The notes under the pieces: generated by a model
Databases searched by the model: none
Told to the model about the DNA's origin: nothing
The model's input: the letters and a program-made list of their open reading frames with translations, nothing else
Assembly: GCF_024502345.1 (NCBI RefSeq)
Contig: NZ_JALDNN010000001.1
DNA length: 64,000 nt
Source of the DNA: Escherichia coli
GTDB lineage: Bacteria > Pseudomonadota > Gammaproteobacteria > Enterobacterales > Enterobacteriaceae
Direction: 5' to 3' (one strand)
Shown here: positions 786 through 1,038 of the stretch, in pieces
Numbering within the stretch: position 1 is the first letter of the stretch
Layout: every line of letters starts with the position of its first letter
Program-made: the position numbers and the translations under genes

Positions 786-932
786 AAACCGGAAATAACG
801 CCAGAAATGGTGGAAAAAATAGCCTAAATAGGCTGATTCGATGTGTTTGCGGGAAAAAAATCGGCCCAGATCCGCGAAATTTTAATCAACGAGTCAGCTT
901 GGGAAGAAATGACCTGCTTATTCGCACCTTCC
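1..932 (+). mobile_element. IS5-family insertion sequence, 5'-truncated by the window edge; right terminal inverted repeat CTTATTCGCACCTTCC at 917-932 followed by CTAA target motif at 933-936
   Basis: Transposase ORF reads as IS5 InsH; terminal 16-bp sequence matches the IS5 inverted repeat from memory; internal sequence near the right end differs from the K-12 IS5 copy, so this is an IS5 variant. Confidence 0.85.
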
Positions 933-1038
933 CTAATCAGATAGAACAGTCCCGGATAATATTCGGGACTCATACACTGACATACTGAGTTCTGAATTTA
1001 GTAGCAAGATTACTTATGATTATTTAAGGATAGTAACC

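Follow-up and report, generated by a model that had tools for sequence, protein, structure and literature searches.

The window analysed here, a 64,000-nucleotide stretch of Escherichia coli contig NZ_JALDNN010000001.1 (RefSeq assembly GCF_024502345.1), opens inside an insertion sequence, in the part of a selC island that lies nearest the integrase. The IS is followed by a short leader, a 5'-nucleotidase gene and the island integrase (Table 1), and beyond selC lie yicJ and then yicI. An earlier reading of the letters alone (the sequence-only reading) had placed an IS5-family right end at 932, a CTAA flank next to it and the ATG of the cargo gene at 1039, and both the coordinates and the family are as it claimed: 106 bp separate the IS end from the nucleotidase ATG, the A of which is base +107. 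The intact integrase adjoins a 150-aa Arm-domain remnant of a second one, which sits between the integrase and selC; the remnant is missing from S43 and ET358, each with one integrase. Such paired integrases at selC suggest tandem accretion or replacement of islands. The 73-aa ORF that runs over the IS end has no Pfam match and is most likely spurious. RefSeq annotates 'hypothetical protein' ORFs of the same kind at L001 8068-8289 and L010 2549-2749, and a small ORF exiting the ISKpn26 right end into whatever flank adjoins it is probably a recurrent annotation artefact at copies of this element.

Table 1. Features at the start of the window (window coordinates)
Feature	Position	Strand	Remarks
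3' 932 bp of a 1196-bp ISKpn26-type IS5-family IS	1..932	+	Element truncated by the window start
DDE transposase gene, 3' part, stop codon 783-785	1..785	+	From the ORF list
73-aa ORF over the IS end	767..988	+	RefSeq 'hypothetical protein'
Non-coding 3' tail of the IS	786..932	+	
Right terminal inverted repeat, 16 bp, GGAAGGTGCGAATAAG	917..932	-	
CTAA, canonical IS5 target tetranucleotide	933..936	+	Target consensus from PMC5493358
Native leader, 106 bp, 35% GC	933..1038	+	Same as in IS-free G3/10
Hairpin without a U-tract	948..970	+	
Shine-Dalgarno AAGGA of the nucleotidase gene	1026..1030	+	Eight bases before the ATG
5'-Nucleotidase gene, 321 aa, ATG at 1039	1039..2004	+	Intact
Island integrase, 404 aa, P4-type tyrosine recombinase with Arm-DNA-binding domain	2053..3267	-	
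Arm-domain remnant of a second integrase, 150 aa	3254..3706	-	
tRNA-Sec (selC)	3863..3957	-	Attachment site of the island

Only the right end of the IS lies inside the window, and the full element was read at the corresponding locus of E. coli CFSAN051542 (L001). There it measures 1196 bp, is labelled by RefSeq 'IS5-like element ISKpn26 family transposase' and is bounded by IRL GGAAGGTGCGAACAAG and IRR GGAAGGTGCGAATAAG, the latter occurring once in the window. Its transposase matches DDE_Tnp_1 (PF01609, E = 3.5e-34) and the N-terminal DUF772 (PF05598, E = 3.4e-21), and the C-terminal 250 aa of this protein are retained in the window, where positions 1-932 differ from L001 7302-8233 by one mismatch. 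Identity of the L001 element is 99.2% to an E. coli ISKpn26 copy between tnaB and tnaA, against 90.8% to the K-12 IS5 (IS5A) and only 72% over the last 97 bp. The tnaB–tnaA copy ends at the same bases on both sides and is flanked by a clean TTAG/TTAG duplication, which confirms the boundaries of the window element. On the basis of the RefSeq label and this copy-to-copy comparison the element is assigned to the ISKpn26 type of the IS5 family. ISKpn26 (IS5 family, IS5 group) is best known as a disruptor of mgrB in Klebsiella pneumoniae. The 4-bp Py-T-A-Pu target duplication expected of such an element is absent here (the right flank is a canonical CTAA but the left flank is CTTG in CFSAN051542), which speaks for later rearrangement and not against the identity of the element.

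The junction between IS and leader is found elsewhere. The closed complete genome of CFSAN051542 has the same junction at 99.9% identity and is the only one among 5426 complete E. coli genomes to carry it; metagenome contig OGWT01001009.1 has it at 100% identity over window positions 834-4241; the exact junction was not found in the GTDB representative genomes. A chimera arising by misassembly at a repeat would be a natural suspicion, as ISs are commonly misassembled and the metagenome contig ends inside the IS, but nothing specific points to one, and it is given a negligible probability because the joint recurs in a closed genome, the window and the contig, and falls exactly at the terminal base of the IS beside a canonical target. 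The window and CFSAN051542 differ by 2 SNPs across the island part, and over island DNA 933-3957 the window differs by one SNP from each of CFSAN051542 and G3/10, a strain free of the IS at this point, whereas the adjacent chromosome (yicJ–yicI–yicH, 3958-10100) diverges by 0.7-1% among the three. With a near-identical island in three diverged backgrounds, the joint has been inherited or transferred and is not an artefact, and different backgrounds share one island allele, whether or not it contains the IS. The pairing of a near-identical island with diverged flanks also points to recent horizontal spread of the allele, or to recombination of the flanks.

What stood upstream of the nucleotidase before the IS can be read from G3/10 (L002), which matches the window at 100% identity from base 933 on (at most one SNP through 3957). 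There the CTAA is made up of the last sense base and the TAA stop codon of a gene for a 580-aa P-loop NTPase, 1743 bp long (L002 6262-8004), that lies between hsdR and the nucleotidase gene. The order M, S, DUF4268, R, 580-aa gene, nucleotidase is also found in GPT24-02, EC291 and a Buttiauxella contig. The GPT24-02 and EC291 islands are at leuX and in the region of the 580-aa gene have 93% and 84.5% DNA identity to G3/10, respectively; the 580-aa protein of the Buttiauxella contig has 79% identity. Since the order hsdR, P-loop gene, nucleotidase recurs in these relatives, the P-loop gene is ancestral to the block. The three genes are co-directional in the IS-free islands, with spacers of 64 bp and 102 bp. 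In CFSAN051542 the P-loop gene is gone and only the final 106-bp flank remains; relative to G3/10 the missing DNA amounts to 1803 bp, that is the 64-bp spacer plus 1739 of the 1743 bp of the gene. The lost gene has 31% GC against 53% for hsdR, so a long AT-rich tract has been removed. The earlier suggestion that the insertion might have cut off upstream islet genes is therefore upheld, the P-loop gene being present in IS-free relatives and absent beside the IS, and the islet derives from a larger defence island at selC, one with type I R-M, DUF4268, P-loop NTPase and nucleotidase genes.

The lost 580-aa protein gives only sub-threshold Walker-A matches in Pfam, NCBIfam and PADLOC and belongs to no Pfam family, and full-length homologues are found across Proteobacteria; the family is a widespread, unnamed one of ~580-590 aa without a Pfam domain. 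In Pectobacterium and Aeromonas the gene stands alone between housekeeping genes (L020 6001-7764 and L021 6001-7752). An obligate pairing of the P-loop gene with the nucleotidase was considered and rejected, as the P-loop gene is solitary in these two genera and the nucleotidase has many other upstream neighbours. This solitary occurrence, together with the varied neighbours of the nucleotidase, marks the P-loop gene as an independent module, and the family may represent a defence module of a single gene, so far uncharacterised.

The left end of the IS was read in CFSAN051542, in which the island is 2 SNPs away from that of the window and the chromosome is that of a different strain. The left flank there reads ...TGAATTTCATGTTGACAGCTTCTTG/GGAAGG (the stroke marks the border with the IS) and contains no CTAA. 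The flank CAGCTTCTTG is half of the hsdR terminator hairpin ATGTTGACAG-CTTCTTG-CTGTCAACAT, which is intact in the leuX-type islands of G3/10 and 2EC1, and the left flank as a whole is 100% identical to the hsdR end plus half hairpin in islands of this type, so that the CTTG at the left IS end falls in the loop of the terminator. The sequence-only reading had predicted a matching CTAA at this end, and CFSAN051542 has CTTG in its place. With CTTG on the left, CTAA on the right and no duplication, the arrangement is not that of a simple insertion.

Our preferred reading, which we hold to be probable, is that the IS forms the joint of a deletion or recombination event in a selC defence island, that the nucleotidase gene, its ribosome-binding site and its leader were left unaltered, and that any effect on the gene comes about through its changed transcriptional context. 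The right end of the element stands at the CTAA of the P-loop stop region; the left end, as seen in CFSAN051542, falls within the loop of the terminator hairpin of hsdR, and the ~1.8 kb that separated these two points is gone. Two routes could lead to this arrangement, recombination between two direct ISKpn26 copies or a single insertion followed by an IS-promoted adjacent deletion. Because the left flank CTTG is not Py-T-A-Pu, either route needs one non-canonical IS5 event; among catalogued IS5 targets ~3/24 (about 12%) are non-Py-T-A-Pu (PMC5493358). No second island with an ISKpn26 copy in its hsdR terminator loop, which could have acted as donor, was found in a search of complete E. coli genomes. 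The hsdR gene of CFSAN051542 (L001 3884-7037) is itself a three-part mosaic: it is identical to the selC allele of G3/10 up to ~L001 6084, represents a third allele at L001 6084-6680 and from L001 6681 to the IS is 100% the leuX-type allele. Such a mosaic indicates recombination between paralogous type I R-M blocks of different tRNA islands.

The nucleotidase matches PF06189 over residues 1-312 (E = 3.4e-120) and the PADLOC model PDLC04900 (PDC-S08, a candidate single-gene defence system; E = 1.8e-134), and no solved-structure relative was found by sequence. Among the papers searched, one mentions PDC-S08, and names it only as a prediction category; the anti-phage role is a candidate one. CFSAN051542 and G3/10 encode an identical protein (WP_045265438.1), and at the DNA level the window gene is 100% identical to that of CFSAN051542 and has zero mismatches with that of G3/10. 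The gene is present in 65 of the 5426 complete E. coli genomes, typically as the gene closest to the integrase in defence islands at selC or leuX, where its neighbours include genes for type I R-M, DUF4268 (PDC-S11), SIR2, AAA+HNH and phosphorothioate-sensing endonuclease proteins. The slot immediately upstream is variously occupied by the 580-aa P-loop gene, a divergent SIR2 gene, an AAA ATPase plus HNH, a CN-hydrolase plus small gene, or other hypothetical genes.

Other ISs also abut the nucleotidase. ISSen4 lies ~36 bp upstream of it in mip270_04 (L009 ~5909-6018) and in TUM1881 (L014 3223-4013) an IS1 precedes a frameshifted gene by ~40 bp; IS1 truncates the gene in PSS-08-1 (L018 2787-3501) and ET650 (L019 2789-3494), in both of which the distal island is deleted up to nanC or fim, and GZ2408P has a partial match like that of PSS-08-1, from query position 331 (match only). 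Thus four of these five genomes carry a frameshifted or truncated gene, GZ2408P being counted by its partial match. Because ISKpn26, ISSen4 and IS1 have each arrived independently within ~110 bp upstream of the nucleotidase in different E. coli lineages, one might propose that the slot is an IS hotspot that exchanges defence cargo and rewires transcription of a defence gene which degrades nucleotides and may be costly, and that the ISKpn26 joint was selected for read-through coupling to the R-M operon. We regard this as improbable; the repeated presence of ISs at the nucleotidase looks like ordinary IS-driven erosion and cargo turnover, not directed activation.

The 106-bp leader (933-1038) is base-for-base the same in IS-free G3/10. 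Positions ~933-1005 represent what was 3' flanking DNA of the lost P-loop gene; of the leader, nucleotidase genes in other contexts share only the final ~20 bp. In the ten contexts compared the AGGA core of the Shine-Dalgarno sequence is the sole invariant upstream element (10/10), and the ~12 nt between this core and the ATG are loosely conserved, with the consensus AGTAAC. As homology among nucleotidase modules starts at the ribosome-binding site, there is no conserved private promoter. The hairpin at 948-970 has a 10-bp stem, AGTCCCGGAT-AAU-AUUCGGGACU (in DNA, AGTCCCGGAT-AAT-ATTCGGGACT), with copies at L002 8016-8038, L007 8015-8037 and L008 8016-8038. It is invariant in three diverged relatives in which the flanking genes differ by 7-15%, and it occurs only at loci with the P-loop gene, whether present or lost, which again makes most of the leader the 3' flank of that gene. 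This hairpin could serve as a palindromic operator or stabilise the 3' end of an mRNA; an Rfam search over 700-1150 gave no match at E <= 1.

Scans for sigma-70 promoters were carried out over 600-2200. On the + strand there was no match of at least 9/12 in this interval, the junction and the leader (933-1038) included, and the number of sigma-70-like matches was not above that in shuffled sequence. In a relaxed scan the best + strand candidate was CTGAAT-17-TATGAT (992-1020, 8/12), but its transcript start would land on the Shine-Dalgarno sequence and its −10 reads TGTGAT in GPT24-02. Hybrid promoters spanning the junction (TTCGCA-18-AACAGT and others) were rejected at 7/12. The only 9/12 sigma-70-like match near the junction, ATGTCA-16-TATTAT, is on the minus strand at 956-983 and directed toward the IS; in strains lacking the IS, transcription from it would run antisense to the P-loop gene. 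Between the transposase stop codon and the ATG, a terminator scan gave no hit on the + strand; a small hairpin at 821-834 is terminator-like on the minus strand only.

These scans bear directly on the proposal of the sequence-only reading that the IS activates its neighbour. Set out in mechanistic terms, a simple IS5 insertion at CTAA would switch on the nucleotidase, either via the bent, IHF-binding 3' end of the element or from a promoter supplied by the IS, as at glpFK, bgl, flhDC and fucAO. In favour, the element points its 3' end at the gene (transposase on the + strand to 785, IS end at 932, gene on the + strand from 1039), and at glpFK the activating region is likewise at the gene-proximal 3' end of IS5 (PMC2753651). 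The A-tracts are kept at about −148, −127, −106 and −78 from the end, an IHF-like site with one mismatch (AATCAACGAGTCA) lies at 884-896, the CTAA target is that used at glpFK (PMC5493358), and with a leader as AT-rich as this one (35% GC) a relievable silencing is conceivable. However, the 177-bp 3' region of IS5 has no promoter activity of its own and boosts a downstream promoter, by means of an IHF site and an A-tract bend and in a phase-dependent manner (PMC2753651), and no + strand match of at least 9/12 is present in 933-1038. In addition, the mapped IHF core TCAA reads TCGA here within a terminal 97 bp that is 72% identical to IS5, no CTAA is present at the other IS end (in CFSAN051542), as a simple insertion would need, and four of the five other IS-abutted copies (GZ2408P by partial match) are frameshifted or truncated. 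The sequence-only reading had itself named an identical upstream region in IS-free islets as grounds for giving up the idea, and the 106-bp region is the same in G3/10. IS5-type activation of the nucleotidase is not supported by the sequence, and we judge it quite unlikely.

Under the preferred reading of the IS as a deletion joint, the nucleotidase would be affected through the transcription that reaches it and not through an outward promoter of the IS. Transcription that once crossed the lost gene of 31% GC could be replaced by read-through from the IS or the hsd operon. Such read-through is plausible: the transposase and nucleotidase genes point the same way, the scan of the + strand gave no terminator-like site between the transposase stop codon and the ATG, and the IS splits the terminator of hsdR (in CFSAN051542). 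Transcripts from the IS5 transposase promoter are documented to run through the entire IS, with expression of fucAO as the result (PMC11894529). An obstacle to such read-through could be the hairpin with the 10-bp stem at 948-970. From the present analysis we favour coupling to the IS or the hsd operon by inference, with a neutral outcome nearly as likely. In the latter case the IS would be a scar without effect, the nucleotidase being served by a weak native promoter in the retained 106-bp leader. Leader, ribosome-binding site and gene match those of IS-free G3/10 exactly, the gene is intact in three backgrounds, and CTGAAT-17-TATGAT is available as a weak candidate promoter. Set against this are the 8/12 score of that candidate, the position of its start on the Shine-Dalgarno sequence and its dissimilar −10 in GPT24-02, as well as the fact that module homology starts only at the ribosome-binding site, most of the leader being the 3' flank of the lost gene. 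A neutral scar of this particular kind is possible, although we rate it below an even chance.

The opposite effect, polar silencing, has also to be weighed. Here the loss of the upstream gene together with its promoter, and the interposition of a 1.2 kb IS, would have cut operon transcription as a first step of decay. The co-directional arrangement of hsdR, P-loop gene and nucleotidase in the IS-free islands, with spacers of only 64 bp and 102 bp, fits such an operon, and the IS-abutted copies in TUM1881, PSS-08-1, GZ2408P (partial match) and ET650 have indeed decayed. At this locus, however, strains with and without the IS have the same intact gene, the transposase gene runs in the same direction, no + strand terminator-like site intervenes between the transposase stop codon and the ATG, and read-through of IS5 is documented (PMC11894529). 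Silencing therefore seems unlikely. If read-through coupling or recurrent IS targeting were true, the locus would illustrate, in a modest way, how ISs alter the expression of defence genes; otherwise its significance extends little beyond annotation.

With regard to known systems, neither the IS nor the type of event is new, and the case is one of ordinary island erosion. The element resembles ISKpn26 in its length of 1196 bp, its 16-bp terminal repeats GGAAGGTGCGAA(C/T)AAG and its DDE_Tnp_1/DUF772 transposase, but in contrast to a typical ISKpn26 insertion the copy in CFSAN051542 has CTTG to its left and CTAA to its right, with no target duplication. It shares with the 177-bp 'IB' region of glpFK (Zhang & Saier, 2009; PMC2753651) a gene-proximal 3' end, a CTAA flank and phased A-tracts, and departs from it in having TCGA for TCAA in the IHF core, an end that is 72% identical and no defined downstream promoter. 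At fucAO (PMC11894529), as here, the transposase is co-directional with the downstream gene, and transcription that enters or begins at the 5' end of the IS can pass through all of it; there an upstream Crp site activates the transposase promoter, whereas the IS in CFSAN051542 is preceded by the hsdR end and its split terminator. There is also a likeness to the IS-mediated erosion of tRNA-linked islands, in which the flanks of the IS are likewise unrelated, no duplication is present and the cargo between them has been lost. The loss in this case is small, one gene of ~1.8 kb, and as it ends exactly at the stop codon the neighbouring gene has been left intact.
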